Shown here: piece by piece, positions 7,487-24,396 of the stretch
How the letters are laid out: every line of letters begins with the position of its first letter
Position numbering within the stretch: position 1 is the stretch's first letter
Source of the DNA: Deferribacterales bacterium
GTDB lineage: Bacteria > Chrysiogenota > Deferribacteres > Deferribacterales > Geovibrionaceae
NCBI GenBank assembly: GCA_050253075.1
Contig: JBFWJS010000005.1
Coordinates: 1-64,000 of the forward strand
Direction of reading: 5' to 3'
DNA: 64,000 nt
Program-made: the position numbers and the translations under genes
The notes under the pieces: generated by a model
What the model saw: the letters and a program-made list of their open reading frames with translations, nothing else
What the model was told of the DNA's origin: nothing
Database searches by the model: none

Positions 7487-7515
7487 TTGACAATCTACAA
7501 ATATTAGATTTTAAT
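7487..7515 (+). promoter_or_regulatory. Sigma-70 promoter of the xis-int operon with an operator between -35 and -10
   Basis: TTGACA (7487)-17 bp-TTTAAT (7510), with AATCTA caaatat TAGATT at 7492-7510. Confidence 0.7.
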
Positions 7516-7520
7516 CAGCT

Positions 7521-7703: not shown

Positions 7704-7986
7704 AAAGATTTTAGAAAAACTATCACTACTTGAACATCTTGTAGCAAACCAATGCAGCATCGCCCCAAGATGGCTGTCTATGAAAGACGCTTGCGCATAT
7801 GCAGGGAAGAAATCCCGAAACTGGATGCAGGAAAAGCTCCAATCCGGTGACATATACGGATATCAGGAAAACAATAAAGGGAATTGGGTCATAGACAAAA
7901 CTTCCATTGATGAATACTTTTTAGGCTTGTCCGCTTCAACCAAATCAAAATTGCTTGATTTGAAAAAGCGAACAGGGTTATCATAA
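7690..7986 (+). CDS. Excisionase/RDF-like winged-HTH protein
   Basis: WLSMKDACAYAG…KLQSGDIYG…GNWVIDKTSIDEY; translationally coupled to the integrase. Confidence 0.75.
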   Translation: MAESEKILEKLSLLEHLVANQCSIAPRWLSMKDACAYAGKKSRNWMQEKLQSGDIYGYQENNKGNWVIDKTSIDEYFLGLSASTKSKLLDLKKRTGLS

Positions 7987-8993
7987 TGGAAATGAGACTG
8001 TTCAAAAGAGAAAACGGGACTTGGTATATTCAGTTTGAACGAGGAAATAAAAAGTCCCTGAAAACAAAGAACAAACTTGAAGCTCAGCGAATATACAACG
8101 AGTATGTCAAACAGGCAATGGATGGCAAAATCGTTAACCTTCACAATTCTGAATTTTTGTCTGAGTTTAAAGAATCCTGCCTTGATGATATCAAAGCGAC
8201 AAAATCAGCAGCCTATCACACATCGATGACATACAGCCTTGATGCCTTTCTGGATATAACAGGAGACAAAGAAATCTCCAAATTAACAAAAAGAGATATG
8301 GCAAAGTTTGTAGAACACAGACTTGCATCAGGAAAATCAAAAACCACAGTCAATATTGATATAAGAAACGTAAAATCAGCTCTTTCAAAAGCTGTAGAAT
8401 GGGAACTGATCAGTAAGAACCCGATGCATGGTTATAAACAGCTTCGTATCGACAGAAAAGCTCCTGCCTTTCTGACTATGGAAGACATCCCTAAAGTAGC
8501 TGACAAAATTGAGCACCCTGTCGTCAAACAGGCATTTTACTTCTACCTGCTCACAGGATGCCGGAGAGAAGAAATAATTTCTCTTACATGGAAAGACATC
8601 GACTTAAAGAACAACAGAATCCATATCAAGAAAACCAAAACTCATCTGGATAGACACATCCCCATTAACAGTAATCTTAAAAGCATGATTGAAAGCATTG
8701 AACATCGTGTCGGATATCTGTTCCCTGGCAGATGCAAAGGGAAACATATCAATAAAGACACCATGACACATTTAATCAAAAAAGCACTCACTGAAGCTGG
8801 GTTTGGACACATGAGACTTCACGATCTCCGTCACACATTCGCAAGCTTGCTTGCAATGAACAATATTCCCCTGAAAGCAATCGGCGAACTACTCGGCCAC
8901 ACCGATAGCCGGACGACTGAAATATATGCACATCTCACAAAAGACTATCTTGAAAACGCTGTAGACACTCTTGATATCAAAACCAACGACTGA
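7986..8993 (+). CDS. Tyrosine recombinase (integrase 1)
   Basis: Catalytic motifs TGCRREE, KKTKT, HDLRH, LLGH and TEIY; adjacent to the att site. Confidence 0.96.
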   Translation: MEMRLFKRENGTWYIQFERGNKKSLKTKNKLEAQRIYNEYVKQAMDGKIVNLHNSEFLSEFKESCLDDIKATKSAAYHTSMTYSLDAFLDITGDKEISKLTKRDMAKFVEHRLASGKSKTTVNIDIRNVKSALSKAVEWELISKNPMHGYKQLRIDRKAPAFLTMEDIPKVADKIEHPVVKQAFYFYLLTGCRREEIISLTWKDIDLKNNRIHIKKTKTHLDRHIPINSNLKSMIESIEHRVGYLFPGRCKGKHINKDTMTHLIKKALTEAGFGHMRLHDLRHTFASLLAMNNIPLKAIGELLGHTDSRTTEIYAHLTKDYLENAVDTLDIKTND

Positions 8994-8999
8994 AACGTC

Positions 9000-9241
9000 T
9001 GCACCCAACTTGCACCCAATTTTAAAAACAAACACTGATAAATATGAAGTTTTTAGTATTGATCTAATTTCTACGGATCAAAAGGTTTGGGGTTCGAATC
9101 CCTACGGGCGCGTTACTGAAAAAGCCCTATCTTCATGATAGGGCTTTCTTTTTATCTATTCTGCTGTAATTCCCAAAACTGTCCCATTTGAGCCGTTCTA
9201 GCCCCTTTTTTGACGCATCTGCGTACAATTTGCGTACAATT
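9000..9241 (+). mobile_element. att junction 1: 3' half of tRNA-Arg(ACG) (9071-9112) with flanking arm-type direct repeats
   Basis: Core CTACGGATCAAAAGGTTTGGGGTTCGAATCCCTACGGGCGCG. TGCACCCAA x2 at 9000/9011 and TGCGTACAA x2 at 9220/9231. No tRNA 5' half. Confidence 0.88.
9121..9153. terminator. Intrinsic terminator after att1 (probably bidirectional)
   Basis: AAAGCCCTATC-ttcat-GATAGGGCTTT followed by a T tract and preceded by an A tract. Confidence 0.8.
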
Positions 9242-9275
9242 AAAATATCTAGTCACATTACAAAAAAGGCACTTA

Positions 9276-10130
9276 TTATTTTAAAAGTGAGTCGGGCATC
9301 TTTATAAATTCTTTTTTGTTTTTATGATAAGGTTTTTCAGTTGGTTTAAAGATCACCTCACCATCAATGCCTGATACATCAAAAGTTAAATATCCATTTG
9401 TTATTAGATTCTTTATTAAGTTTAAAATATCTTTTTTCCTAAATGACTCTTGCCTACCTAAGTTCTCTCTATATTCTAATTGTTCCTTATATTTTTTGTA
9501 AGTAAACTGATCCCATGAATCAAATATGCTTATTATTCGAGACATAGGGATTTCAAAAGATCTATCAAAATCTCCAGTTAATGAAACTATACTATCAATA
9601 GTATAAGGATCTTTTAGCAACTGTGTTTGTGAGTTTTTCACCCAATAAGTCAAAGCATTGCTTGTTGAGTGAGCCAGACTACTTAAAACTTCCTTAGTCA
9701 ACTGAGCTTCACTAATATTTTTAAATTTGACTGGCTTAATAAGACTTGTCTTTAGTATCTCTGCTTTAAGCTCAGCGAGCTTTCCTTTTTGCTGCTCATT
9801 TTCAAGCCTACTATGAGCTACTTTCTCATCTATAAAACATAATATTTGTTTCTTTTGCTCCATTGCATAGTGATATTCAAAATGAGTGTATGAAATTCCA
9901 CCAAGGCAATCTTCAAATTCACCATATCTGTTATTCAACAGCAAAATAAACAAATCACTACTATCAATTGACTTTACGATATAGTCTTTTGGACTAGAGC
10001 TAGCTGCAGGGAAATATTCCATGCATTTAGGATGAAAGCCTGCTTTCAGTAAACCATCAATGACATCTGCCCTGAAGTTTTGTAAATCTCTGAAAGTTGA
10101 ACTTAAAAAAACTTGATGTAATTTATCCAT
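9276..10130 (-). CDS. DUF4062-domain (TIR/NDT-like fold) protein
   Basis: VFLSSTFRDL…R…MEYFPA…SDLFILLLNNRYG…SYTHFEYHYA; ATG immediately after the upstream stop codon. Confidence 0.82.
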   Translation of the reverse strand: MDKLHQVFLSSTFRDLQNFRADVIDGLLKAGFHPKCMEYFPAASSSPKDYIVKSIDSSDLFILLLNNRYGEFEDCLGGISYTHFEYHYAMEQKKQILCFIDEKVAHSRLENEQQKGKLAELKAEILKTSLIKPVKFKNISEAQLTKEVLSSLAHSTSNALTYWVKNSQTQLLKDPYTIDSIVSLTGDFDRSFEIPMSRIISIFDSWDQFTYKKYKEQLEYRENLGRQESFRKKDILNLIKNLITNGYLTFDVSGIDGEVIFKPTEKPYHKNKKEFIKMPDSLLK

Positions 10131-10131
10131 A

Positions 10132-13100
10132 TTAATACCCATCCAGTTCATGACGTTCAGAGTCATATTTCGCTCTTTTATCGTAGTCTTTTGCTATAGA
10201 CTCGTACAATTCTGAAGTTTTTGGATAATCAATAATAATTTCTTTGGATATTATCCTGCATTTATTAGCGATAGCTCTGTCGTCTTTACCCGGATCTTTT
10301 CTGTCAATCCAAGATGTTCCTTTATTGTTATGAAGTTGTATAATAAACCCTATATTGACATCCTTACTAATATTCTCATTCAGAACCCTAAGTATAGCCT
10401 CTTCTGGCATCATATAACTTTTCACATTAGTACTTTTCGCTAATATATGACCAATATATTGGTCGCCTATTTCTAACCGATCATTTGCCTTACAAATTTC
10501 TCTCGCTTCATGTATCCATTTCATGAGTTTATCAAACTCAATTGCACTATCTTCTTCCTGACCAGGAATCATGTTCCAAATATCTAAAGCATGATAAGCA
10601 TTTTCAGCCTGAGCTAGAGAAACTTCAGCATTGTTCTCTTTAGAATTTCTTGGTTTAAATGCAAAACTGATTAAATCTGCAAAAAAATTTGGATCAGTTG
10701 CTATTTTTCTATTAATAGTTTTTGGAACTTTATCATCATCACGATACTTTTCCCAAATCCGCAAATAAGCCCACTCTAATGTTAGCAAATCTTTTTCAGA
10801 AACGTCTGTAGACTGCCAAAGCTCGTCGAAAGCTTCATTAATGTAATGAGTATCCATAGTGCCAAGCTGTCTTTCTGGTAAGTTTTCAAGCAAAGAAAAT
10901 AATATCTTTACTAATACTGATGAGTCAAATTCTTCTTTTTTCTTGGCTCCAGTAACGTATTCTAATGCTGCTATTGCATTACCAACAGATAAATACTTTT
11001 CAACAACGACGTCTTTATCAAGTGTTTCATTTAAATGGTAAGGGTATACTTTTTTCCAAAAGGTAGAACAACTCTCAGAATCTAATTGAGACAAATATTC
11101 AAATAACTCTTCAATTCTTGAACACCATAATAACACTTCAGTCTTAACCTCATTCTTAACTGAAGCATTATCAAAAATCTTTTGCAGGTAACCTTCTTCA
11201 CTATACACACGCCTTCTTATATATGTTTCATATAGAATTTTATAAGGCATAGAGAAAGAACTTGAATAGTCAGCAAAGTATAAATCCAAACCATCATGAA
11301 ATGAGTGGTTGCCTCCGGCAATCCAACCGATATGCCTAGTATCCTTAGAAATGGATATCAATCTAATAAGACCATCTATCCCATCTTGTTCATATATTTC
11401 AGTTAACGCTCTTAACCTATCTGACTCAAGTTCAGAATCATGTTCTTTCCAATCTTTAGCATCTGGATACTGTCTCTTTACTGCATGGTAGTCATAATCA
11501 AAAAGATAAGAATAGGCATAAGCTAAATCATCAGGCTTAAACTTTTTTGCTAAATCTTTGAGCTGAACGTCTCGTTGCTTTATTGCATCATCGTCAGACT
11601 GTGCACACCTCACTATAATATCTTCAATAGAATCCCAAACTGATTTTCTTTCATCTAATGAGAAATCATTTATATCTAAAGCATTTATTGACTTTACAAG
11701 CTCTATAAACAAATTATCAGGCACCATGTCTGCATGCTCCAAGATAATGTTAATATGCTCACACCTATTCATTATTTTGAGACCAAAAGAAATCAATTTA
11801 TTCGCAAAAGAATATGCTTCACCATAGGTAACAACTTCTGTTTTCCTGTAGTCTCTCCATACTGGTTTTGCAATGCCACTCGCAGTTCCGCCAAATCTTT
11901 CAGGCAATACTTCTTTTATAAGCTTCCATGCAATATTCTCATCGATAGAGTAAATTTTCCCTACCAGGTTAATACGCTCTTCAATAGTAAAATTACCCTG
12001 TGGATGCCAATATAGAAATATTTCTTTCAGGCTTTTAAGAGGCCTATTAACATAATTACTCTCGGTATTAGTATCTAATTTAGCAAGTTCAGCAAGCATA
12101 AGGACCGCCTGCTCATTGTAATCATCTATCCAAACAAGTCTTTCAAGTCCCCATAAAATACCAGTAAAGGAATGTCCACCGAAAAATGCATTTGAAGGTT
12201 CTTCAAACAATTTTTGGACCTTGTCATTTTGATTAGACAAATATTTGAGTGAACGTAAAAACACTGAAGGGGAAGACTCTGCAAAATCATCAATTTCGCT
12301 TCTCAAAGAAGCCCATAGTTCCCAGGAGGTATCCTCATTAAGCAATTCTATTAAAATTGAATCCACATAGGGCTGATTATCGTATTCAATAGCAAGCAAA
12401 CTAAAGGTTTGCTTCAACGAATCTCTTAGATAAGATGAATACTTATATTGTTCATTTGAATATACTGAGTAGCGTTCTTCTATAACTTTTTGAAATTTGG
12501 TGTTCTCATCGCTATAAACAGTTAGAAATGCTTTATGATAGCCTTTCTTTAGCTCTTCTGTAATTTCTGTGGACAAAAAATGCCATGCATCACGAAAAGA
12601 AATTAACTCCCATACACCACCAATTCTGCGTACGTAAGGGTCATCACCTTCAGAAAAGTCCGATAATACTTTTTCGATATAGTCATAATTTTTATTATAA
12701 ATTTCACAGACAATTTGTTTATCCATATCATTATTTGAGTCAAAGGCACCTAACAGCAACATAGGCACCAACTCTTTTTTGTCAAATCCAAGCCAACGAG
12801 GTGGAGTAAATTGCCCGTTTGCTTGTAAACGTCTAAATACCGTTAATGATCTTTTAGAATCGCCTGCGAGTCTCCAAGCTTTAGAATGATCTAATCCTAG
12901 CTCTTCCAGTGCCTCTGTAAATGAAGACTTATCTTGCCTAACGAGGTCTATCGAGTCGCCTCTAAAATTCTTCACACGACCTATAGGAACAATTACAGAA
13001 TGTCCTTTAGATATAGCATAATTACCACCTTCGAATTCTGGAAAAATTGGTATTAAGATTATATTAGAATAATTTTCTACTATATTGTCGTATGCACTCT

Positions 13101-13842
13101 TAGAGCTAACAATTAATGCTCTTGATAATAGGTTTATATTTGAATCAAAAGATTTAGCCGCACAGTAAATAAATGCTAGTCCTTCATCGAGAGAATCAGC
13201 CTCTATAGAGAACACATATCTTTTTTTATCGATAAGTTCTTTGAAAGAATCTACAGCAGCTTGTCTGCCCGCCAGCACCATCTTATCTGAGATATTGGGA
13301 GTTGTAGCCGTACTCCATTTCTCCCACCAGGAGTCAAGAGCTTCAGTACCATCACCAGAGTGTAATCCTATTTTTGAGGCAAACCACTTTGCAACACTGG
13401 GACACGTATTTAACCACGACTCTAAACAGCTAGCATTATACGCCTTAACCGATTGCCAAACTTGCTCTTTATCTTTTGCATCTGCCCACTCAGTATTTTT
13501 ATTGAACGCTCGAGGTGAAACAAATCTAAAATGAGTTGCAGTTGGTTCGACTCCAAGTGGATTTTCAACACGTTTTTCATAGTCGCTATCAGCTTTTGAT
13601 TTAGCGTCCTGACTTACACCAAATTCCCAAACAGACATACCTGTGGGGACATAAGGGTGTTCATCTTCAGTTAAAACAATTCCATCCCAGCCTCCAGTAG
13701 AAACAGCACTACCAGCTGGAATATCTATTTCTTTAACATCCACCGATGCATATATTAATTTCCGTATCAGTAAAGGTAATAAATCCTGGGCATTTCTAGT
13801 TCCTGCCCAGTTTCGAATATGTGATGAATCTACCCAATCCAT
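10132..13842 (-). CDS. Large hypothetical protein with a PD-(D/E)xK-like N-terminus, degenerate STAND-like segment and long helical tail (candidate defence protein)
   Basis: GGWDG…SVWEFG…KADSDYEKR; AGR…SIEADSLDEGLAF lacks a canonical Walker A. GGAG RBS before MDWVD. Confidence 0.55.
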   Translation of the reverse strand: MDWVDSSHIRNWAGTRNAQDLLPLLIRKLIYASVDVKEIDIPAGSAVSTGGWDGIVLTEDEHPYVPTGMSVWEFGVSQDAKSKADSDYEKRVENPLGVEPTATHFRFVSPRAFNKNTEWADAKDKEQVWQSVKAYNASCLESWLNTCPSVAKWFASKIGLHSGDGTEALDSWWEKWSTATTPNISDKMVLAGRQAAVDSFKELIDKKRYVFSIEADSLDEGLAFIYCAAKSFDSNINLLSRALIVSSKSAYDNIVENYSNIILIPIFPEFEGGNYAISKGHSVIVPIGRVKNFRGDSIDLVRQDKSSFTEALEELGLDHSKAWRLAGDSKRSLTVFRRLQANGQFTPPRWLGFDKKELVPMLLLGAFDSNNDMDKQIVCEIYNKNYDYIEKVLSDFSEGDDPYVRRIGGVWELISFRDAWHFLSTEITEELKKGYHKAFLTVYSDENTKFQKVIEERYSVYSNEQYKYSSYLRDSLKQTFSLLAIEYDNQPYVDSILIELLNEDTSWELWASLRSEIDDFAESSPSVFLRSLKYLSNQNDKVQKLFEEPSNAFFGGHSFTGILWGLERLVWIDDYNEQAVLMLAELAKLDTNTESNYVNRPLKSLKEIFLYWHPQGNFTIEERINLVGKIYSIDENIAWKLIKEVLPERFGGTASGIAKPVWRDYRKTEVVTYGEAYSFANKLISFGLKIMNRCEHINIILEHADMVPDNLFIELVKSINALDINDFSLDERKSVWDSIEDIIVRCAQSDDDAIKQRDVQLKDLAKKFKPDDLAYAYSYLFDYDYHAVKRQYPDAKDWKEHDSELESDRLRALTEIYEQDGIDGLIRLISISKDTRHIGWIAGGNHSFHDGLDLYFADYSSSFSMPYKILYETYIRRRVYSEEGYLQKIFDNASVKNEVKTEVLLWCSRIEELFEYLSQLDSESCSTFWKKVYPYHLNETLDKDVVVEKYLSVGNAIAALEYVTGAKKKEEFDSSVLVKILFSLLENLPERQLGTMDTHYINEAFDELWQSTDVSEKDLLTLEWAYLRIWEKYRDDDKVPKTINRKIATDPNFFADLISFAFKPRNSKENNAEVSLAQAENAYHALDIWNMIPGQEEDSAIEFDKLMKWIHEAREICKANDRLEIGDQYIGHILAKSTNVKSYMMPEEAILRVLNENISKDVNIGFIIQLHNNKGTSWIDRKDPGKDDRAIANKCRIISKEIIIDYPKTSELYESIAKDYDKRAKYDSERHELDGY

Positions 13843-14458
13843 TCTAATCTCCAAGTTTGCATTCATAATACAAAATATCTAAACAGCACCTTGGCTAGCC
13901 CGCTTTATGAATTTCCCCATTTTGATTCGAGTCTGCTGCTCAGGGCATAGGTAGACGTTCATTCTCTACCGCAATGTTTAGTCTCTTTCACATCACATAT
14001 TAAACCACAAAGTCACCAATATGAAAACAGATAGCTCGACTAAGAGGGCATGCAAAAAATGAATTTTAAATGAGAGCATTTTTTAATGGATGTGTCGGAT
14101 TAGCACATGACTATTGCAAATAAGTCTTTGCAAAGATAAGTCGAAAAATGGCTGGAGGGATATTCTTTGCAACAGTCATGGCCTTACTCGAAATTTTGTG
14201 TCGAAAAAACCAATGATTAATTTCAAAAAACACACACTATTTTTAGCTGTAAAACAAACAGATACACCACCTTTACATTGTAAAAAAAATACGAACATTT
14301 ACAAAATGGAAATGATCTGCAAGAAAGATTAGGGCACTGGATGGTCGGAAGTGAAAGAAAGAGAATAACAGTAAAGACGGCCTTTAAAATTAAAGTAGTT
14401 GCTTATAAGACAAGCTAATATTATCACAAAATAGATTTATTAAAGATCGTTATTCGCA

Positions 14459-14671
14459 TCAGATATGAAAACCTAAGAGCTTAAGAACAGCTAACATAAC
14501 TCCCATATACACCATAATTTTAAGAACGCTGTTGGCGTTTACACTGATTATTTTATCTGCAATTTCATCATCAGGGGTATCCATTAAACTTCTTGAGGTA
14601 TAGACACCGCTACAGTTTTTGTAATATGTATCATTATCAAAAACTTCGTCATCTCGCATATCATCAGACAT
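14459..14671 (-). CDS. Small protein with a C-terminal transmembrane helix
   Basis: GGAGG RBS; acidic N-terminus and hydrophobic VLKIMVYMGVMLAVLKLLG tail. Confidence 0.55.
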   Translation of the reverse strand: MSDDMRDDEVFDNDTYYKNCSGVYTSRSLMDTPDDEIADKIISVNANSVLKIMVYMGVMLAVLKLLGFHI

Positions 14672-14719
14672 AGCTTCCTCCATTTTAATTTTACTTTTAA
14701 AGCCCAACTTAATACTTTA

Positions 14720-14815
14720 CTACCAGCACTTATATTTTGCTGCGACAACTGTTACTCCGACTGCGATCACAACAAAGCCAATAGAAAGAGTAATTAAAAA
14801 CATTTCAAAACTCAT
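14720..14815 (-). CDS. 31-aa single-TM peptide (absent from the ORF track)
   Basis: MSFEMFLITLSIGFVVIAVGVTVVAAKYKCW*, preceded by AAAAGGAG. Confidence 0.5.
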   Translation of the reverse strand: MSFEMFLITLSIGFVVIAVGVTVVAAKYKCW

Positions 14816-15017
14816 ACAAAGCTCCTTTTCCATTTTTATTAATTACTTAACTGTATACTATAATATATCAAAATTTACTTAATAATTCAATAGTATTTAA
14901 CACCAATAATATAACTGTATATCTTTAAATATACATTAATATTACTTGTAAATATACACTTTATTTTATATTTATTTATTATTTGACAAGCACTTAGGCG
15001 TATATATACTCGAATAC

Positions 15018-15173
15018 ATGAGAGAAAAAAAACGAGAAATGATACACATCAGACTTGATTCCGATGTGCATAAAAAACTTAAAAGTTTCGCAGCAAAAGA
15101 CCACCGCAGTATTTCTGATACAATACGTATGCTGATTGATAAATATATCTCAGAAAAAGAGTCAGCTAAGTAA
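15018..15173 (+). CDS. Ribbon-helix-helix (Arc/CopG-like) regulator (absent from the ORF track)
   Basis: MREKKREMIHIRLDSDVHKKLKSFAAKDHRSISDTIRMLIDKYI…; TTGACA (14983) and TATACT (15005) immediately upstream. Confidence 0.8.
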   Translation: MREKKREMIHIRLDSDVHKKLKSFAAKDHRSISDTIRMLIDKYISEKESAK

Positions 15174-15643
15174 ATCAATTCAACTGTTCAAACATTACCA
15201 TACAACATCACAGGAATGTACAATAACTTGTTTATAAGTATTTTAATTGTATATTCTTAACTATACATTATAAAAAAAATACTTAACATTAAATAAGAAT
15301 TAATTTTCAACCTGTCATTTTGACAGAACGCTCTGATAAGTTATTCATAAACAAAAGAACTCAAATATACTGTATTTTTAAAACAAACGAAAAATAAGCT
15401 AATAGCTTATAATGCATTGGTATTAAAGATAAAATACTAGATTTAAGACTTGATTAAAAGCAGATATGAGATTATACTAAATCTTGAAAGTGAACAAAAA
15501 GAAGGCCTCAGCGTTGGCAGACGCTAAGGCCATGGTCAACACTTTCGTGCGAACGAACTCAACAATTTTATGAAGAGGTGTGTTGTGCTTTTAAGATACT
15601 TATATCTCACACAAAAGTCAACCTCCTCTTCTTTGGAGGAAAA

Positions 15644-16393
15644 ATGGATCAAGAAGACCGCATACTACTTTTCAAAAAACTAGCCGAGCATTACAATATT
15701 GACCTAACAGATGAGCTTATCGACAACTTACATGTTAGAATTTTTGAGAACATGCTTTCTCTTGATGCATTCTCTAATGATGATATTCTTAGTTTTTTCA
15801 TCGCTTCACCTTTTGAGCTGAATAAAACAATTGAAATGTTCAGGAACTTCGGTCACTCAGTTTTAACTTACGCAGACACTAAAGCCCTGTACTTTGGTAA
15901 TCCTGATTTCTTTGATCGCCACTATCTGGACTTCTTTGATTTGTTATACAGAGCTGAAGAAATGAGCATCCCGCACACTGAAATTTTCGATATCTTCAAA
16001 AGAAGCTACAATGATTATGACAAATACAAGCATGCACTCTTCAGATTTGAAGAGCTGGTCATTGATGAGGAAATACTTATCGGACACCGTTCAAACTTTG
16101 AAAAAGAAATGGAGAAGATAAAAGAACTTTTTAAAGAACACCAGACACTTATTAATAAGAGATGGTTAACATTCAATGAGGCGTGTGAGTACTCTAACAG
16201 AGGAAAAAATTGGCTACAAGAAAAGCTTAATAATGGAGATATTTACGGCTATCAAGAACACGGTGAACAGGGTAAATCAGGAAAATGGATTGTTGATCGT
16301 CACAGCATTGATCAATTCTATTTAACTGACAGCAATATGGCTAAACTCAAATTTGAAAAGCTTAAAACTGGGCAAAGCAGAGGTGACGCATGA
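15644..16393 (+). CDS. Excisionase-like HTH fused to an unknown ~170-aa N-terminal domain
   Basis: C-terminus WLTFNEACEY…NWLQEKLNNGDIYGYQE…GKWIVDRHSIDQFY matches the 7690-7986 protein; GGAGG RBS; ATGA overlap with the integrase. Confidence 0.7.
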   Translation: MDQEDRILLFKKLAEHYNIDLTDELIDNLHVRIFENMLSLDAFSNDDILSFFIASPFELNKTIEMFRNFGHSVLTYADTKALYFGNPDFFDRHYLDFFDLLYRAEEMSIPHTEIFDIFKRSYNDYDKYKHALFRFEELVIDEEILIGHRSNFEKEMEKIKELFKEHQTLINKRWLTFNEACEYSNRGKNWLQEKLNNGDIYGYQEHGEQGKSGKWIVDRHSIDQFYLTDSNMAKLKFEKLKTGQSRGDA

Positions 16394-17394
16394 ACCTATG
16401 GCGACATAGTAACGGCACATATTACATACGTTTTGACAGGAACAACCGCAAAAGCCTCAAGACTAAGAACAAACTCGAAGCTCAGCGACTCTTACGTGCT
16501 TTCCAGAAAGAGGCAATGGAAGGCCGACTACTAGAACTAACTAAATCAGAGCTTTTATCCGATTTTATCACTGCGTGCTTACAAGATTATGAATCAACAA
16601 AAACAAAAGCTACTTACGTGTCAATGCGATACAGCTTAACAGCCTTTTTCGATTTTAACGGAGACAAAGAACTGTCTAAACTGAATAAACGTGATTTATC
16701 TGAATTTGTTAATTATAGGATTAAAGCAGGTTACGCAAAAACATCAGTGAACATTGATATAAGAAATTTAAAGGCTGCACTGTCAAAAGCTCTCGAATGG
16801 GAATTGATTCACAATAATCCGTTTTACGGCTTTAAGCAGCTAAAGACAGACCGTCAGGCACCCAAATTCTTATCTTTAGAGGATATACACAAAGTATCCA
16901 CAGCAATAGATGACCCTATCATCAAGAGGGCATTTTTTTTCTACATTTTGACGGGCTGTCGTAGAGAAGAGATTCTCAGCCTTACATGGCAGGATCTTGA
17001 CATTGAAAGGCGTGTTATTCATATCAAAAAGTCAAAGACTCACTTGGACAGATGGATTCCCATAAATGACTCTCTAATGGAGATCATTGATACAATCCCT
17101 CACAAAATAGGCTTCCTGTTTCAAGGTAAGAAAAAAGGAACTCATTTACACAAAGACACTATGACACACAAAATTAAGCAGTACCTGAAGAAAGCAGGCT
17201 TTGCAGAAATGAGACTGCATGACCTTAGGCACACCTTCGCCAGCCAGCTGGCATTAAGTGGAGAATCTCTTCAAACAATACGAGATTTACTCGGTCACAC
17301 AGATATCAGGACAACTGAAATATACGCTCATCTAACAAATGATCACTTGAAAGCAGCAGTCAATAAACTCAAGATAGACATAGGCAAAGAATAA
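16390..17394 (+). CDS. Tyrosine recombinase (integrase 2), paralog of integrase 1
   Basis: TGCRREE, HDLRH, LLGH and TEIY; shares long identical stretches with integrase 1 (KSLKTKNKLEAQR, VNIDIRN). Confidence 0.96.
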   Translation: MNLWRHSNGTYYIRFDRNNRKSLKTKNKLEAQRLLRAFQKEAMEGRLLELTKSELLSDFITACLQDYESTKTKATYVSMRYSLTAFFDFNGDKELSKLNKRDLSEFVNYRIKAGYAKTSVNIDIRNLKAALSKALEWELIHNNPFYGFKQLKTDRQAPKFLSLEDIHKVSTAIDDPIIKRAFFFYILTGCRREEILSLTWQDLDIERRVIHIKKSKTHLDRWIPINDSLMEIIDTIPHKIGFLFQGKKKGTHLHKDTMTHKIKQYLKKAGFAEMRLHDLRHTFASQLALSGESLQTIRDLLGHTDIRTTEIYAHLTNDHLKAAVNKLKIDIGKE

Positions 17395-17461
17395 CAACTT
17401 ATCATTTACAGAAACTAAGCTTGGAACTACAATTACTTATTCTCTTTTTAAAGGCAGGAAT

Positions 17462-18766
17462 ATGGCTGAATCAAACAGGATAGAATACAAACGACAACTT
17501 ACTGACTCGCTTGAAAAAGAAGTCGTTGCTTTTCTGAATTATAAAGACGGTGGCGTTATATACATCGGCGTTGATGATTCAGGAAATCACTACCCCATTG
17601 AAGATTTAGACGATACTCAGCTTAAAATCAAAGACAGAATCAAAAACAATATAGAACCATCCACCATGGGACTCTTTGATGTATCAATTGAAAATGACTC
17701 TGTGAAAATAACTGTTGCCAGCGGTTCAGAAAAACCATATTACATCCGTAAGAACGGAATGTCCGAAAAAGGATGCTTTATACGTGTAGGTTCTTCTGCT
17801 GAACCAATGCCTAAACGTGCAATTGATAACTTATTCTCAAAACGCACAAGGAACTCCATAGGTAAAATAGAATCACCCAAAACACAACTAACCTTTGAAC
17901 AATTAAAAATTTACTATCAGGAAAAGGGAAAGCAGCTTAACGACCAGTTCGCATCCAACCTGGAACTGCTTACAGAAGACAAAAAATACAACTATGCTGC
18001 CTACCTGCTGGCTGATAACAACGGAATTTCTATTAAGGTGGCAAAATACAGTTCACTATCCAAAGCTGAGCTTATAGAAAACAATGAATACGGTTACTGT
18101 TCAATCATCAAGGCAACTAAGCAAGTATTAGATAAACTGGAGCTTGAAAACAAAACTGCTGCGCAGATTACCTCTAAAGAGAGAATAGAAAGTCGCCTGT
18201 ACGACCCTAGAGCTCTTAGAGAAGCCATAATCAACGCCATTGTACATAACGACTACTCAAATGAAAGACCACCAGTCTTTGAAATTTTCCCTGACAGAAT
18301 AGAAATCACTTCCGCCGGCGGCCTCCCCTACTCTTTCACAAAAGAAGAGTTTCTCGCAGGATATTCCGCTCCGAGAAATAAAGAACTGATGCGTGTTTTC
18401 AAAGACCTAGACCTTGTTGAACAGCTCGGCTCTGGTATCCCCAGAATCCTTGAAAAATACGATGAAAGTATATTTACGTTTACCGATAATTTTCTGAAGA
18501 CCACTTTTACAACCAATATGAGGTTGGGTGACAGGTTGGGTGACAGGTTGGGTGACAGGTTGGGTGACCTGAGCGTGAACAGACAGAATATCCTAGCTCT
18601 TATGATAGAAAATCCTGAAATATCAATCCCTCAGATGGCAGACAAAATTGGAATATCAGAAACAGCCATTCAGAATAATATTAAATTTCTGCGCGAAAAC
18701 GGCTATTTAGAAAGACAAGGTACTTTTGGCGGAAAATGGATTGTAATTAGAGGCGATCATGGGTGA
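17462..18766 (+). CDS. Schlafen/AlbA_2 domain + HATPase-like + C-terminal wHTH protein
   Basis: ESNRIEYK…EVVAFLN..GGVIYIGVDD; LREAIINAIVHNDY; PRNKEL…EQLGSGI; C-terminal HTH. Confidence 0.82.
   Translation: MAESNRIEYKRQLTDSLEKEVVAFLNYKDGGVIYIGVDDSGNHYPIEDLDDTQLKIKDRIKNNIEPSTMGLFDVSIENDSVKITVASGSEKPYYIRKNGMSEKGCFIRVGSSAEPMPKRAIDNLFSKRTRNSIGKIESPKTQLTFEQLKIYYQEKGKQLNDQFASNLELLTEDKKYNYAAYLLADNNGISIKVAKYSSLSKAELIENNEYGYCSIIKATKQVLDKLELENKTAAQITSKERIESRLYDPRALREAIINAIVHNDYSNERPPVFEIFPDRIEITSAGGLPYSFTKEEFLAGYSAPRNKELMRVFKDLDLVEQLGSGIPRILEKYDESIFTFTDNFLKTTFTTNMRLGDRLGDRLGDRLGDLSVNRQNILALMIENPEISIPQMADKIGISETAIQNNIKFLRENGYLERQGTFGGKWIVIRGDHG
18521..18568 (+). repeat. Four perfect 12-bp tandem repeats (AGGTTGGGTGAC; RLGD x4)
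   Basis: Direct reading; in-frame linker before the HTH. Confidence 0.95.
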
Positions 18767-19496
18767 AAATGAAGAATACGCCAAAGCAGTACAAGATCTT
18801 TCAAAATTAGGCATCAAAGGAATCGAAGCAATAGAAAAACTAGGTAGCTTTTTCTCAAAAGTGTTCAAAGCACCAATAGAAGAAATATCTGGCATGCTTC
18901 ATGATAGGTTACGTTTTTTTCGCTGGAAATGTCTGGTTAAGATAGTAGATGAGTCAAATGAGATTCTTGACAAAAAAGGCATCACTGAAACAAGGGCTGT
19001 GCCTCCTAAAATCGCTCTGCCAATTTTTGAAGAGGCTTCCCTTGAAGATGATCCAACCCTTCAAGCCCTCTGGAGTCATTTACTAGCAAATGCAATGAAT
19101 CCAGAATTTAATGATGAAATCAGGTATGGCTTTATTGGGATGATCAAGAATATCACAGCCATAGAAGTTAATGTCTTAAATATCCTGTACCAAAGACTAC
19201 CTAATAAGTTTCTAATAGATGGGCCTGAGATAGAAACCCACGCCCTAACCAAGTATGATATTATGGTACTTTTAGATATCAAATCAGATGTTTGCTCTAT
19301 AGCTATAAATAACCTTATGCGTATGCAGCTAATAGAGTATAAATTAATCAGACATAAACCTGTTGTTAGCGATAACGATAGAACATCTTATACCGCAACA
19401 ATGCATGTCGATTTGTATGCAGACTTATTCAATATCACAGATAATCTAGTACTAACGCCTCTAGGGGTAAAATTTGTCGAGGCATGCACACAATAA
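18759..19496 (+). CDS. Abi-alpha family (DUF4393) protein
   Basis: VPPKIALPIFEEASLEDDPTLQALWSHLLANA…NLMRMQLI…LTPLGVKFVEAC. Confidence 0.75.
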   Translation: MGENEEYAKAVQDLSKLGIKGIEAIEKLGSFFSKVFKAPIEEISGMLHDRLRFFRWKCLVKIVDESNEILDKKGITETRAVPPKIALPIFEEASLEDDPTLQALWSHLLANAMNPEFNDEIRYGFIGMIKNITAIEVNVLNILYQRLPNKFLIDGPEIETHALTKYDIMVLLDIKSDVCSIAINNLMRMQLIEYKLIRHKPVVSDNDRTSYTATMHVDLYADLFNITDNLVLTPLGVKFVEACTQ

Positions 19497-19507
19497 AAAG
19501 CTATAAA

Positions 19508-19609
19508 TACGGGAAAAAAGCATCAACACTGTATTCTCACTACTGAAGAAGAATAGCACTTATACCATCAACAGTTTCCTACATATCAAAAAGTTTTGGG
19601 TTCCAAGCC
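19508..19609 (+). mobile_element. Degenerate att-like site (att2)
   Basis: Core 19579-19609 matches att1 at 25/31; arm-like 19508-19527 matches 24284-24303 at 16/20; spacing is the same as at att1 and att3. Confidence 0.7.
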
Positions 19610-19759
19610 AGTCACCAAAATATTGAGGTTACTCCTGTTAAAAGCTCGCTGATATCTTAAACAAACAACAACAAAGACTTACTCTTAGCAGCACTTTGAT
19701 ATAGAAATCATAATATTATTAGTACTATAATATTATAGTTTTTCTTGAAGGTGGTATAG

Positions 19760-22700
19760 ATGAGTAATCCGAAGGGCGGTATCGCCGATAAAGAAGGCAA
19801 CAGATATGAAAAGTGGGCTGTAATCAGTAAGTATATTGAGCTGCTCGAAAATAAGATTGATTATGTGATTGTTGAAAAACTAGGACAACGGCACGCTGAT
19901 TTTATATGTAAAAAAGGCGATGAAATTTATAAATATCAGGCTAAAGCTAGAAAAGGCAATATACTTGTCTGGGATTTTCAAAGCCTCAAATCAATTTTAA
20001 AGAACGCAAAAGAGGATTTGGGCAAAGGCGAAAACTTCCAGAGATTTATACTATTTTCTCCGATCTCAGAAATTGATTATCACGACATGGCCAAAGGACT
20101 TCGTAACCATGGGCTGTCATTATTTTACAAAGATCAGATAGAGGGAAACACTTCCAATAAACCGAAATTCAATAGAATCAAAGAAGAATTCTTCACATCT
20201 GGCAATGATAATGAAGACATCTCTGACACTCTGGATTTTATCAGCCGCTTTGAATCACACACTATGGGCGATGACCAAAACACCAAAGGCTTGCTGATCA
20301 GATCACTTGGGTTATTACTGCTCGGGGAACCCAGTTCAGCTTTCAGCATTTTATATGAGTTTATAGACGAATCTTTCGGCAAAAAGGTTACATATGACAT
20401 CATAACTGACTATTTAGAAGAAAAGGGTTTTAAGTCAAGAGCTGCATCCTCAAAAAATGACATACAGCTTGTTAAGGAAAAAGCTCAATCATATCTCAGC
20501 AAATACAGAGAACGGCTTCTGGATGAAAACCTTTATTCACGTGAATATACACAGCAGATCATCGATTCTTTAAATGAAGGGAATGATATTCTGCTAACAG
20601 GCTCTGCAGGAGTTGGAAAAAGTGGTACGATCTTCGACCTGATCCAAACATTATCAAAGACACACCTTGTTTTCCCTATCAATGTGAACGATGAAACTAT
20701 AGGCGATAATATCAAACAGATGTCGACTGCATTCGGATTTGAGAACCGACTGGATTATGTGTTGCATGATATTAAATCAGAAAAAGAAATTATTGTTATT
20801 ATTGACCAACTTGATACAGCCAAAATGCTTAATGCTAACAAGGGCAATGTCTATTCCACTATTAAAAATTTCATTGAGTCACTCGACTTCATAAGAGGCA
20901 AGGAAAGCAGGGTTAAAATATTAATAACTTGCCGGAGTTTTGACTTAGAGAACGACCCAAGCCTGAAACAGTTAACTGATGAATACACAATAATAAACCT
21001 TGCGCCGCTATCGGAAAAGGATCTGACTGAAATTCTCAGTAAGAAAGGTATCGCCTATAAAACATTACCAAAAGAGACACAGAAGCTTATCGGTACATTT
21101 TTTCATCTTAAGCTGTTTTTGAAAGTATACGACAAGTCGAAACCACATCGGTATGCGACGAAGCTTGACTTAATGGGTGAATATATCAGAAAACTTGAAT
21201 CAAGCTTTCCTGAAATCAGGAATGCCCTTCTCAGCTTCGCTAACGCACTTATTATGAGAAAAGAAACCAGCAGACATAAAGATAAAATTGGCTGTACAGA
21301 AAAAGAGCTGAATATACTAAAATCCGCAGGAGTGTTTTCTGAGAAAGGCGATTTTATAAGCTTCGAACACCAAAGCTTTCTCGACTATTTCAGTTCATTA
21401 GACCTCAGTGAAAGACTGGAGAACAACATTGAAAACCTGCTAAACTGGCTTGGTGATAAAGACGATCAAACTCTTGCAAAAGCAGTTATTTTTTCTAATG
21501 CTCTCCAGATGATTACAGATAAAATGCTCATTGATGTTTCAAAAGCCATTCTCCCAAGCCAGGGTATACGATATCACATAAAACACACATTACTAAGCTT
21601 CTTATCTACAAAAGAAGACCCTGTGCAGCAACTTGAAGAATACATATATCAGCTTGCAATACATCCGAACTATCAGAAGATTATCTTTAACAGAGTGTTT
21701 TATCAGGACCGCTACATCAGCACGCTAATTAGTTCTGGAAAGCTTGAAGAATTGCTAAGTAACGGCAACTTCCTTGCATTAAATGTGATAAGCAATACAT
21801 TAAGACGAGCTGATAAGTATACTGACTTTATCCTAAGTTATGTTTTCCCTAACAAACCAGAGGCGATATATGAGCACTACCAATATGACCTAGAGAAAAT
21901 GCCTATTGCCCTGATGGACTCTTTCATCTCTCATGCTCCTGAAACATATTCAATTATAGAATATATGCATCTTAATACATCCGATGAGCTTGTAAATATC
22001 TGTAGTCTGTGTGCAAAAGCATTGGCAAAGACAGCCTATCAGCCCAGTAATAATGAATATAAAAATAAGATAATTGACAATGAGGATTTCTGCTTTCCGC
22101 TTAAGATGGAGTTTCATAGGATACCAACAAACAGCATAGATGCAACTGTAGATAATACCAGCAAAGAGCAGCTAACGGCTTGTTTCGAAACTCTGATTGC
22201 CCCACTTGTTGAATTGTTCTCTACTATCCCAGAAGAAAAGATATTTACAATAAATACAGACAGAGACGCAGTAGAGGATAAGGATATAATTGAAAATAGT
22301 TACTTTCTGCTCAAGCATATAGGCCGGAAGATTCTGACGCTGGATGAAGATTTTATCATGAAACATTTTAGAGCTTACTGCTCTAGTATGCATCCATATA
22401 TAAAAATACTTTTCTTTGAAATAATGGATGGTATCAGCAAGCCCGAAAACGCAAATTATATTGTAAACTGGCTTACAGAGAAAAAACTGTCCTATGATGA
22501 CTTGCACAGTATTACTATTAGAAACAACTGTCACTTTACTGGGCGGCTAATAGAAAAGATATCACATCTATGCAGCAGGGAAACTCTAAGGGAAATTCAG
22601 GAAATGGTGCTAAGCACCAAGCCGTATATGTATTACAAATCTATAGGTGACAAAGAACAGGAAGACCACTACTTAAAATACTATAAAGGTGAAGCTCAAT

Positions 22701-24277
22701 TTTTACTTCTTTCTAAATTACCCAAAAAAAGACTAATCAAACCTGCAAAAGAAGCTCTCAAAATCGCCACTGAAGGCTATGGTTCAAACAATCACTATTA
22801 TGAACCTATGGATTTTAAAATGAGAAAGGTTGTTTCTCCATTCCATAAGAGGGATGCAACTACAGAAGAATGGCTGAAAGTCATTACAGACCAAAATCTG
22901 AAAGAAGAAGACAGACTGTCAGAAAGAGAAAAGGATTCTGAATATTACTATGAACATTCTGTGAGAGCGTACTCCAGCGACTTTCAGGATGCAGTAATCA
23001 AACAGCCAAATAGGTTCCTAAAGCTTACTCAAGATCATACTGAGCAAGTCAGACCTGAGTTCATAGAGTCCATCTTTTCCGCACTGGAAAAATACTCAAA
23101 TAGGGACGTAAAGGAAGAAATTGATTATAAGCTGATGAAAAGCTTTATCATTAATTATTTTGATATAAACAATGATAACATTAGTAAAAGCTTCTGCAAT
23201 ATTACCAAACACAGATATTCTGATGATCTACCAGTATGTTTTTTATATGCTCTGCCGGAAATAGCAATGCATAAACCACAAAAAGCTATTGATATACACA
23301 ATACTGATCTTGATAATGAGGAGGCTCCTGCAGAAAGTATCGAACATGCAGCATACAACTCTGCTAGAGGCGAAGCCTTTTATACTATGAGCAGTCTGTT
23401 ATTTATAAATCACAACCTTTTCTCGATTTTCGAACCAGCTATCAGACAAGGTATAGAAGATCCGCAGCCAGCTGTTAGAATGGCTGTTATGTCATGTGTA
23501 GCCGCTGCCTACAATATAGACAAAGAGCTTTCGTTGCAAATGTTCAGACAGCTAATTCAAGAAGATTATAAGCCTGCTCTTAGCAGTTACGGTTCCGAAT
23601 ATGTTAACGTAATAGTATCGGAACAACCGGAAATATTCAGAGATATATACTACAGAATTCTTAAATCTGATAATGAAAAAGAGATAGTTAATATAACATA
23701 TGGAGCGACAGCTTACGAAATTTTTTACGGCCATTTTGAGGACTTAGTAGAGGCCTCTTTATCCCACTCGGAACAAGCCAGAAGAGGCGTGTTGAAAGGT
23801 GTACGGCAATGCTTATCAGAGTATTACGACAAGACTATAAGATGGCTGGAAAAATTGTTAGAGTATCAGGATACAGACTTTGATAAATTTGCACGGCTTC
23901 ATCTGAAAGAAATAACAGAGGATCATCTGAAAGATTTTTTGGGCAGACTTAGCAATGGGCAAATCACAATAAAGCTTTTACCCTATATAATTGACTCTAT
24001 AATAGATGGCGGGATTAGCTGGTCTGACTGTATCGTCGAAATACAGCTATGTATAATAGAGTACCTTAATACGCCAAACCAGAATGAACGACCATATGTC
24101 ATCAGTGAATTCTTCGAGAATATTACTACACTCATAAAGGGAATGTACGATCATTACTCATTATCCAAAAATAAAGGGCAAATTTCATTTATTTTGGATA
24201 TTTGGGATGAGATGCTTAAACAACAGAACAGGGCTTATACAGATATGCATAATAAACTTATGCAGGAAATGAACTGA
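19760..24277 (+). CDS. Avs/AVAST-like protein: N-terminal PD-(D/E)xK nuclease + STAND NTPase + helical-repeat sensor
   Basis: GNRYE…E…ADF…YQAK nuclease motif; Walker A GSAGVGKS; Walker B IIVIIDQLD; TCRSFD; FEHQSFLDY; HEAT-like tail (DPQPAVRMAV). Confidence 0.75.
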   Translation: MSNPKGGIADKEGNRYEKWAVISKYIELLENKIDYVIVEKLGQRHADFICKKGDEIYKYQAKARKGNILVWDFQSLKSILKNAKEDLGKGENFQRFILFSPISEIDYHDMAKGLRNHGLSLFYKDQIEGNTSNKPKFNRIKEEFFTSGNDNEDISDTLDFISRFESHTMGDDQNTKGLLIRSLGLLLLGEPSSAFSILYEFIDESFGKKVTYDIITDYLEEKGFKSRAASSKNDIQLVKEKAQSYLSKYRERLLDENLYSREYTQQIIDSLNEGNDILLTGSAGVGKSGTIFDLIQTLSKTHLVFPINVNDETIGDNIKQMSTAFGFENRLDYVLHDIKSEKEIIVIIDQLDTAKMLNANKGNVYSTIKNFIESLDFIRGKESRVKILITCRSFDLENDPSLKQLTDEYTIINLAPLSEKDLTEILSKKGIAYKTLPKETQKLIGTFFHLKLFLKVYDKSKPHRYATKLDLMGEYIRKLESSFPEIRNALLSFANALIMRKETSRHKDKIGCTEKELNILKSAGVFSEKGDFISFEHQSFLDYFSSLDLSERLENNIENLLNWLGDKDDQTLAKAVIFSNALQMITDKMLIDVSKAILPSQGIRYHIKHTLLSFLSTKEDPVQQLEEYIYQLAIHPNYQKIIFNRVFYQDRYISTLISSGKLEELLSNGNFLALNVISNTLRRADKYTDFILSYVFPNKPEAIYEHYQYDLEKMPIALMDSFISHAPETYSIIEYMHLNTSDELVNICSLCAKALAKTAYQPSNNEYKNKIIDNEDFCFPLKMEFHRIPTNSIDATVDNTSKEQLTACFETLIAPLVELFSTIPEEKIFTINTDRDAVEDKDIIENSYFLLKHIGRKILTLDEDFIMKHFRAYCSSMHPYIKILFFEIMDGISKPENANYIVNWLTEKKLSYDDLHSITIRNNCHFTGRLIEKISHLCSRETLREIQEMVLSTKPYMYYKSIGDKEQEDHYLKYYKGEAQFLLLSKLPKKRLIKPAKEALKIATEGYGSNNHYYEPMDFKMRKVVSPFHKRDATTEEWLKVITDQNLKEEDRLSEREKDSEYYYEHSVRAYSSDFQDAVIKQPNRFLKLTQDHTEQVRPEFIESIFSALEKYSNRDVKEEIDYKLMKSFIINYFDINNDNISKSFCNITKHRYSDDLPVCFLYALPEIAMHKPQKAIDIHNTDLDNEEAPAESIEHAAYNSARGEAFYTMSSLLFINHNLFSIFEPAIRQGIEDPQPAVRMAVMSCVAAAYNIDKELSLQMFRQLIQEDYKPALSSYGSEYVNVIVSEQPEIFRDIYYRILKSDNEKEIVNITYGATAYEIFYGHFEDLVEASLSHSEQARRGVLKGVRQCLSEYYDKTIRWLEKLLEYQDTDFDKFARLHLKEITEDHLKDFLGRLSNGQITIKLLPYIIDSIIDGGISWSDCIVEIQLCIIEYLNTPNQNERPYVISEFFENITTLIKGMYDHYSLSKNKGQISFILDIWDEMLKQQNRAYTDMHNKLMQEMN

Positions 24278-24283
24278 TTACTC

Positions 24284-24396
24284 TGCGGCAAAAATGCGTC
24301 AACTTTACTCAACGACTACTGATAAATATCCGACTTTTTAAACCGACCAGTTTTCTACGGATCAAAAGGTTAGGAGTTCGAATCTCTTCGGGCGCG
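24284..24396 (+). mobile_element. att3, right boundary of the island: displaced 3' half of tRNA-Arg(ACG) (24355-24396)
   Basis: CTACGGATCAAAAGGTTAGGAGTTCGAATCTCTTCGGGCGCG, 38/42 identical to att1. Host-type genes follow. Confidence 0.88.

Follow-up and report, generated by a model that had tools for sequence, protein, structure and literature searches.

A tandem array of att-bounded elements at tRNA-Arg(ACG) in a Deferribacterales bacterium, with a likely inert internal site and a likely captured STAND-type NTPase gene

Overview

The first 64,000 nt of contig JBFWJS010000005.1 (assembly GCA_050253075.1; here C5, whose first base is position 1) of a Deferribacterales bacterium constitute the window analysed here, which carries a tandem array of elements at tRNA-Arg(ACG), separated by attachment (att) sites. 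The array probably runs in the order tRNA-Arg (on a second contig, C3), an integrative conjugative element (an ICE) with F-type transfer genes and the tyrosine integrase Int1, att1, an island encoding a second integrase (Int2), att3 and the chromosome, and all of its sites follow one lambda-like layout. A further site inside the island, att2, is likely an inert scar, and the gene for a STAND-type NTPase between att2 and att3 is likely captured cargo of a 15.3-kb island predicted to be excisable by att1 x att3 recombination; this interpretation is given a probability of roughly two thirds. In the history that we propose, an Int2-type element bearing a Schlafen-type gene (Slfn) would have integrated beside an older element that carried the STAND gene and that lost its left part. 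The junction att2 would then have drifted, leaving the outer sites to bound one composite island (gene capture by accretion). Int2 and the excisionase Xis2 are predicted to excise this composite island by att1 x att3, and the ICE may carry it along in cis.

Layout and verification of the three att sites

The sites consist of the following features, all on the + strand:

9000/9011 (span 9000..9019), +: att1 arm repeats, two copies of TGCACCCAA, Int1-type, the ICE's P arm, at -71
9034..9045, +: att1 box, ACTGATAAATAT, 37 nt before the core
9071..9112, +: att1 core, matching the 3' part of tRNA-Arg(ACG) at all 42 nt, junction of the ICE and the Int2 island
19508/19519 (19508-19527), +: att2 arm repeats, TACGGGAAA and AGCATCAAC, decayed Int2-type P arm, at -71
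19542-19553, +: att2 box, ACTGAAGAAGAA, at -37
19579-19608, +: att2 core, starting CTAC (whole att2, 19508..19608)
24284/24295, +: att3 arm repeats, TGCGGCAAA and TGCGTCAAC, intact Int2-type, at -71
24318, +: att3 box, ACTGATAAATAT, at -37
24355-24396, +: att3 core, with a terminator hairpin behind it, where the array ends on the right (whole att3, 24284..24396)

The layout common to att1, att2 and att3 is a pair of 9-bp arm repeats placed 11 bp apart, a box at -37 and a core beginning with CTAC, and every coordinate that the initial annotation had assigned to this geometry is right. In tRNA-Arg(ACG), the core corresponds to the 3'-terminal 42 nt and begins in the anticodon loop (CTACGGA). The att1 core is identical to the sole tRNA-Arg(ACG) of the genome, att3 differs from this gene at 3 of 22 pattern positions, and the att2 core matches the intact sites at 20-24 of the first 30 positions and then diverges. 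All three cores share one orientation, and direct repeats of the target-gene 3' end separate the elements, as in an accretion array. The initial annotation had located the array at tRNA-Arg; the intact tRNA gene lies outside the window, on C3.

Nine homologous sites of other genomes went into an nhmmer profile of the ~110-bp site, from which the window sequence was excluded. Applied to the window, this profile recovered att3 (E 9e-23), att1 (5e-15) and att2 (9e-6) at full length and in register, followed by a next-best match at E 0.089, and over the whole 3.04-Mb genome it returned just att1-att3 and the C3 tRNA, with att2 at E 4.4e-4. Because an independent profile recovers them, the resemblance of the three sites is not due to chance. 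The box sequence ACTGATAAATAT occurs seven times genome-wide on both strands, two of them at -37 of a core. The middle site had been expected to be missed by tRNA scanners, which holds for att2 but is no peculiarity of it, as ARAGORN reported zero tRNA genes in the window and all three sites went unreported. A weak fourth arm-box match, the one at E 0.089, occupies 25263-25322 between an RRM gene and a PAS histidine kinase gene; it is coreless and is probably AT-rich noise.

Probable decay of the internal site

Comparisons with relatives relied on a family sample of 16 genomes, in which G000 is the window's genome. Constraint was gauged on four intact Int2-type sites (att3, one in G002 and two in G013), compared with each other in six pairs, and att2 was compared with each of the four. 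The arms agree at 19-20 of 21 positions in the intact pairs and at 16 of 21 for att2 (four changes in the 20 nt of the two repeats), the anticodon loop at 7/7 and 5/7 (GG to AT), and the first 30 core positions at 24-28 and 20-24, respectively. Spacer 1 agrees at 4-9 of 13 positions between intact sites and at 3-6 of 13 for att2, and spacer 2 at 12-22 and 12-19 of 25. Since the segments conserved at intact sites have drifted about as much as its free spacers, att2 looks disused, and it is likely an inert scar. Strand exchange would take place within the anticodon loop, where it is placed because identity to the tRNA starts there. Mismatches in the overlap block exchange by tyrosine recombinases, and, given exchange at this position, the two loop changes by themselves should block recombination of att2 with the other sites. 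In addition, no P'-type set of arm repeats is found 3' of att2.

Over 100 nt, att2 is 74% identical to the right-end site (attR) of the G002 element, with which it has a box and spacer variant in common, and the att3 variant is in common with a site on G013:C9. Against the sites of G002 and of G013 contig C6, att2 agrees at 10-11 of 12 box positions and at 17-19 of 25 positions of the second spacer. This distribution would fit a meeting of two distinct element lineages at att2. The module that lies between att2 and att3 (19609-24396; below, the STAND module) contains no int or tra genes by Pfam. Viewed as a cis-mobilizable element (CIME), it has an intact right site and a left site with changes at 2/7 loop and 4/20 arm positions and without P' arms; with its internal site decayed, the STAND remnant would no longer be a clean CIME.

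The initial annotation had suggested that the resident integrases may add or remove integrase-less defence cassettes in trans, in an integron-like way but at tRNA att sites, which for the STAND cassette would make att2 a working site. The drifted arms and loop and the lack of P' arms after att2 speak against this, and the alternative that the same annotation named, att2 as an inert remnant of tandem-island decay, fits best. No evidence for integron-like shuffling at att2 was found. With 83.0 bits for Int1 and 89.6 bits for Int2, both integrases score far below the cut-off of 265 of the integron-integrase model TIGR02249 and do not classify as IntI.

Integrases and the associated arm repeats

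The recombination genes of the array, and the left end of the Int2 island, are as follows:

7684..7986, +: Xis1, predicted excisionase, HTH_17
7986..8993, +: Int1, tyrosine integrase of the ICE, Pfam Phage_integrase 9.8e-33, 60% identical to Int2
9113..9239, +: left end of the island (P' side), terminator-like hairpin, TTGACGCA inverted at 9210, TGCGTACAA twice at 9220 and 9231
15578..16393, +: Xis2, HTH_17 at the C-terminus
16390..17394, +: Int2, tyrosine integrase, Pfam 2.3e-30

Both integrases are full length, and in an alignment of Int2 with four relatives the R, HxxR, H and Y positions, which we take to be the catalytic motif of tyrosine integrases, are conserved across five sequences. 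The arms differ by integrase, with TGCACCCAA for Int1 and TGCG..CAA for Int2, and intact Int2-type arm repeats are confined to the inner side of att1 and to att3. The P' set on the inner side of att1 combines one inverted repeat with direct ones (two copies), the same pattern as at the ICE left end with a different sequence, and the island left end is 78.5% identical over 163 nt to the DNA 3' of the G002 tRNA. The att3 arms are identical over 20 nt to the arms before the right-end sites of G002 and G013, despite diverged spacers. Within the family, at least four arm types are combined with one box and core (TGCACCCAA, TGCG..CAA, TGCTTCAAA and TGT.TGTAA), and the arm types seen include TGCTTCAAA and TGTCTGTAA. 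Arms and box would be bound by Int, Xis or a host factor.

Beyond the family, a scan of metagenome contigs with the integrase alignment returned 11 loci at 23-37% identity, too distant to help in the analysis of the array. By eye, two of these contigs show a similar arrangement: L045 has two copies of AATCCGCTCCA at 11-bp spacing directly after the int stop, and L046 has repeats and then a tRNA-like 3' fragment after int, the integrases of both being 33-37% identical. An arrangement in which an arm pair and a tRNA tail follow int may be typical of this integrase clade in general.

The conjugative element

The left neighbour of att1 is taken to extend over two contigs. The genome has 36 tRNA genes, among them one tRNA-Arg(ACG) on the minus strand of C3 (61235-61308). 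This tRNA is followed by a hairpin, an inverted TTGGGTGCA and three copies of TGCACCCA at 11-bp spacing, and the same arm motif recurs twice directly 3' of int1, at 9000/9011. The left part of the element, C3:1-61234, lies outside the window and has a full gene set for an F-type type IV secretion system (T4SS); the products recognised there are TraE, TraK, TraB/TrbI, TraV, TraC, TraU, TraF, TraG, TraH, SSB, a coupling protein (T4CP), TraN, TrbC, a TraF-like S26 peptidase and ArdC. No relaxase was recognised among the genes of C3:1-61234. The right-hand part is in the window:

1..8993, unstranded: ICE right-hand part, with a CheB/CheR fusion, IS3 and IS21 fragments, a 791-aa protein, an HTH_3 protein, Xis1 and Int1 (Pfam)

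A conjugative element with both integrase and transfer genes is found at the array. Int1-type arms and then an F-type conjugation system follow the C3 tRNA, and element 1 is therefore taken to be an ICE whose left junction is the C3 tRNA and whose right junction is att1; its size would be 61 + 9 kb or more (at least 70 kb).

Several further features of this element and of the assembly were recorded. The additional cargo of C3:1-61234 includes HipA, an actin-like partition protein, a DUF499-methylase-SNF2 cluster and a 1123-aa STAND-like protein. Among the insertion sequence (IS) fragments at 1951-3990 of the window, OrfB (rve) and OrfA (HTH_Tnp_1) are of IS3 type and lie on the minus strand; an IstB-like ATPase is also present, without a neighbouring IstA. 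About ten tandem 21-bp units (TGGTCAnnnTGCACnnnCGnC) at 5758-5999 lie within the 791-aa open reading frame (ORF; 4257-6632, minus strand), and they could represent either iteron-like DNA or a 7-residue protein repeat; homologues of this ORF adjoin HTH_3-Xis-Int in G006 and G008. Another tRNA at an assembly break is tRNA-Arg(CCG) at C6:249026-249100: contig C6 ends 6 nt later, with a 31-nt overlap between this end and the start of C8.

Cargo of the Int2 island

The Int2 island spans 9113-24396 (15.3 kb) and likely carries phage-defence genes. Its cargo consists of:

9276..10166, -: DUF4062 protein, Pfam 2.2e-22, no PADLOC match
10132..13866, -: 1244-aa protein, no Pfam, PADLOC or NCBIfam match
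17462..18766, +: Slfn, Schlafen/AlbA_2 with HATPase_c_4 and wHTH, conserved companion of this element family
18759..19496, +: Abi_alpha, candidate abortive-infection gene, Pfam 3.5e-26, PADLOC PDC-S47 1.8e-12
19760..24277, +: STAND-type NTPase of 1505 aa, PADLOC PDC-M54A 2.8e-14, weak nSTAND3/AAA

The label of defence cargo likely applies to two genes, and the remaining ones are candidates only; it is limited in this way because Abi_alpha and the 1505-aa protein match PADLOC, in whose defence library the DUF4062 and 1244-aa proteins are unmatched. The 1505-aa protein had been called Avs-like. It is treated as a STAND-type NTPase, with a Pfam nSTAND3 match of 7e-4, below the model cut-off, and Atlas neighbours in AAA/nSTAND/NACHT/HEAT clusters; the Avs label, however, is unbacked by PADLOC, in which no Avs model matched at E<=1e-3. 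Slfn is 88% identical in G002, where it lies directly 3' of int, and 80-84% identical in G012, G013 and G014, where it lies directly 3' of the tRNA. For the 1244-aa protein, an 83% identical counterpart is found in G008, inside an integrase-less att-bounded module, and the homology to G008 stops at position 14034 of the window. The profile finds no relic att between the 1244-aa gene and xis2 (13867-15578), and none was found between int2 and Slfn. Near the 3' end of the Slfn gene, four tandem copies of an exact 12-bp unit (AGGTTGGGTGAC) occupy 18521-18568.

Accretion and integrase-less modules in relatives

In G002, a complete genome of the same genus, tRNA-Arg is followed by an element of 32 kb, which on its left matches the DNA behind att1. 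Its right end comprises xis, an int gene (product 61% identical to Int2), Slfn (88%), cargo of 2 kb and intact arms, box and core; the cargo consists of AbiEi_4 and a DACNV-DAC protein, and no second att site precedes the intact attR. From the right-end core onward, a stretch of 221 nt shows 96% identity to C3 of G000, covering there the tRNA end and the left end of the ICE, and further downstream only ~2.2 kb of ICE-like genes (SSB and neighbours) are left. G002 and the window therefore hold the same two element types in opposite order, with one copy decayed. The opposite order supports accretion, in line with the proposal that the locus grows by repeated site-specific integration.

Across the sample, element order and content vary between att-site boundaries: G002 is reversed, G010 is empty where G012 is filled, and G008 has two modules. 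The second att of G012, together with the 34 nt beyond it, is 97% identical over 75 nt to the tRNA end and flank of G010, an empty site. The cross-strain comparison proposed in the initial annotation shows that module boundaries coincide with att sites and that integrase-less att-bounded modules recur, with seven of them in six relatives (one each in G006, G012, G013, G014 and G015, two in G008):

G012: Slfn and Abi_C
G013: Slfn and two unknowns
G014: Slfn and one unknown
G015: a 137-aa gene, Slfn fragments and a 404-aa gene
G006: the same 137-aa gene and DUF2971
G008, module 1: DUF4062 and the 1244-aa gene, 83.5% nucleotide identity to window 9715-13873
G008, module 2: an AAA_15/AAA_21 ATPase

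The atts that bound the G008 modules are decayed or intact. Of the seven genomes of the sister genus g4, five (G006 and G012-G015) have a second att 2,059-2,945 nt after the tRNA, with no integrase in between. An integrase of this family (E<=1e-30) is present in four of the 16 genomes (G000, G002, G006 and G008), and in G006 and G008 it sits elsewhere, beside homologues of ICE right-end genes. The modules of G012-G015 are orphans because these genomes have no family integrase at that threshold. At the nucleotide level, the Slfn modules of G012 and G013 are 84.5% identical and the chromosomal flanks 67.5%; for G012 and G014 the values are 88.4% and 85.5%. The island in the window's form is absent from the other three genomes of the genus, and its acquisition is therefore considered recent. 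A search for the STAND gene gave 27 pattern matches in genome contigs, none of which was confirmed, and none of 62 other genomes of the order matched at E<=1e-10. The box-plus-core pattern was found at six loci in genome contigs and at none in metagenome contigs; five of the six are on Deferribacteraceae, Deferribacterales or Seleniivibrio contigs, and the sixth, Erysipelotrichaceae-labelled, has only the core in common.

Some sites of the sister genus have a peculiarity of their own. Six g4 right-end sites (L022 8411, L023 8788, L026 9462, L027 11550, L032 2086 and L036 8064) contain a tRNA 3' fragment with a conserved T-loop insert of ~47 nt, of the sequence GTTCGAA / AACAGCGAC...GCTGTTTCTG...GCTGAA / ATCTCTTCAGGCGC, which pairs with the T-arm sequence as a long hairpin and occurs behind at least three arm types. 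Although att2 aligns with this insert without gaps, an insert-only profile gave E 1.5, which does not support the notion that att2 carries the insert. On L032 (G013:C5, 2086-5083), a distance of 1.3 kb separates an att remnant from an orthologue, 55% identical, of the PAS histidine kinase of the window (25378-27093), and the kinase was probably the ancestral right flank of the hotspot because the remnant adjoins its orthologue there. In other g4 genomes, the tRNA and the kinase match are 72-110 kb apart on the same contig.

Contigs from public runs

Seven public runs were available as contigs, which cannot show rare junctions. In X3, from another study, 9647-24371 is covered by eight listed pieces with 0-2 differences each; att2 is bridged by one of them (18539-23423), and the last reaches into the att3 core, where it stops at 24371. 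X5 yielded one 4,866-nt contig that is ~92% identical over 19897-24273 and then continues for 491 nt unlike the window, with no att3-like site. X6 has pieces over 13995-17651 (spacer, xis2 and int2) with 3-26 differences per piece, and otherwise cores only. Gaps in coverage are not evidence, X3 being nearly nil at 7000-8991 and beyond 24928 and X4 having STAND-gene pieces only. In X1 and X2, two runs that may come from the source itself, the k-mer depth of the ICE-end contig (7036-9100) is 298.6 and 7.1, respectively, compared with 478-521 and 11.6-15.9 for the right-hand contigs, which amounts to ~0.45-0.6x the depth of Int2 island and chromosome contigs (9086-26900). This may hint that part of the population is without the ICE, depth not being a share of cells.

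Candidate joints called at min_likeness 90-92 with sides of ~30 or shorter are unreliable, and nothing was drawn from them. A true att1 x att3 product would skip ~15,284 nt, with up to 17 shared letters. The joint 9112->24355 (X2, one contig, side 29) has the wrong geometry for att1 x att3, the joints 19064/19065->24351 (X1 and X2, sides 22-32) start within the Abi_alpha gene, and the joint 7448->22699 (X3) has a side of 21 and was likewise set aside.

Weighing the interpretations

Several points weigh against a captured STAND gene within an att1 x att3-excisable island. The orphan modules recur in relatives and are compact, no int pseudogene was found in the relatives' integrase-less modules, and this pattern may leave room for another mobilisation route. 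No excision product or trustworthy joint was seen in the contigs of the seven runs, which miss rare junctions. The link between C3 and C5 would consist of the shared arm motif and core, not of an assembled join, and a check of contig-end overlaps did not connect the two. The P' arms of the island (TGCGTACAA) differ from the P arms (TGCGTCAAC, TGCGGCAAA) by approximately one inserted base, which makes their cognate status putative. Furthermore, Int2 lies 6.9 kb from its predicted P arm, whereas Int1 abuts its own, and the presumed strand-exchange position is derived from the start of tRNA identity.

Alternatively, the whole array to the right of the ICE could be a fossil in which no pair of sites recombines, a fixed 15-kb defence island that is inherited vertically. 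Decay is indeed common at the hotspot, as seen in the ~2.2-kb ICE remnant of G002 and the decayed atts of G008, and the lack of a joint of att1 x att3 geometry in the contigs would agree with this, weakly so given that contigs drop rare forms. However, int2 and xis2 are intact ORFs with conserved catalytic positions, the att3 arms have stayed identical to those of G002 and G013 over 20 nt though the spacers diverged, and the absence of the island in this form from the three other genomes of the genus points to recent acquisition, which together make a fossil unlikely, if still worth serious attention.

A more speculative idea, which we consider doubtful, extends to the family: the integrase-less defence modules of 2-5 kb, each with arm, box and core at its end, might be no debris but parked cassettes of a lambda-type 'att cassette' system, which visiting integrases, each reading its own arm sequence, move in trans between tRNA-Arg arrays of different Deferribacteraceae genera. 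If true, the STAND cassette of the window would just have been locked in by mutation of its left site.

Slightly less credible still is a degenerate yet usable att2, with the 4.8-kb STAND module as a cis-mobilizable cassette that Int2 (or Int1) would excise and re-insert as a separate unit, at a locus that shuffles integrase-less defence cassettes from one att site to another. The module ends exactly at att2 and att3, the seven integrase-less modules of the six relatives differ in cargo, the second att of G012 is followed by the native flank of the empty G010 site, and the greater similarity of the Slfn modules than of the flanks between G012 and G013 points to horizontal movement. Set against this are the changes at 2/7 positions of the presumed overlap and 4/20 of the arms, the inner side without P'-type arms, and the lack of a family integrase in four of the six module-bearing relatives, which leaves their modules idle. 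Moreover, the X3 contig keeps att2 and the STAND gene joined to the rest, and the X5 contig with the 92% STAND homologue continues from 24273 with sequence unlike the window. A chance resemblance of att2, with att1-to-att3 always one element, could account for the mid-element position of int2 and for the lack of int or xis remnants flanking the STAND gene, but it is refuted by the full-length, in-register matches to the profile from other genomes (E 9e-6 in the window, 4.4e-4 in the genome) and by the identity of att2 to the G002 attR.

Comparison with known systems

In lambda-type attP, arm-type sites accompany the core, and integration may occur at the anticodon loop of a tRNA gene; classes of tRNA sublocation were reportedly described by Williams in 2002. 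The array resembles such attP in having short direct repeats far from the core on both sides and adjoining the int gene, and it resembles tRNA-targeting lambda-type elements in that tRNA identity begins at the anticodon loop and that a new tRNA 3' end and a terminator are brought in by the element. Compared with lambda, arm and box binding are here presumed from the layout, and at least four arm types occur on one box and core.

The accretion scenario is said to go back to original papers by Pavlovic in 2004 and Bellanger in 2011. For the array itself, the closest likeness is to tandems of ICEs, integrative and mobilizable elements (IMEs) and CIMEs. According to one review, an ICE or IME decays to a CIME that keeps its att sites and the next element integrates at att, giving rise to tandems from which single elements or composites can be excised, with gene capture and cis-mobilisation; the examples given are ICESt1/ICESt3 and CIMEs of Streptococcus thermophilus and the tRNA-Lys ICE-IME composite of S. 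agalactiae (PMC5704250). As in the tandems outlined there, direct repeats of the target-gene 3' end lie between a conjugative element, an island with an integrase and a remnant without one, integration, decay and further integration are proposed as the history, and composite excision with gene capture would be expected (PMC5704250). Unlike those tandems, the present one has a Deferribacteraceae-labelled host, a tRNA-Arg(ACG) target, an ICE with an F-type T4SS, defence-type cargo and a decayed internal site. The locus also recalls an integron in its small integrase-less modules, the recombination sites between them and an adjoining resident tyrosine recombinase. Its att sites, however, are tRNA-derived, provided with arms and probably double-stranded instead of folded attC, there is no attI/Pc arrangement, and the modules bring their own upstream regions. 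It is an example of the known accretion/CIME model and not integron-like.

Defence genes ride att-delimited islands and ICEs, often in tandem in one spot, as far as the available parts of these sources go (PMC10484663; PMC8880864; 10.64898/2026.01.13.699239), and the available part of one of them treats tandem att-delimited islands as routine (bioRxiv 10.64898/2026.01.13.699239). Compared with other defence islands, the present locus is a family-level hotspot with orphan modules of 2-5 kb. No account of this lineage was found in a search of literature available in part, which is not proof of it being undescribed.

Significance

No new kind of recombination system is revealed by the array, which represents a clean natural case of defence genes piling up at a tRNA hotspot. 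Stacking by integration, combined with decay of the inner junction, would leave outer sites that make former neighbours one larger mobile unit. The relatives supply an empty site, filled sites, a reverse order, orphan modules and at least four arm types. This combination makes the system suitable for testing how arm specificity secures the independence of stacked elements and whether orphan modules are still movable.

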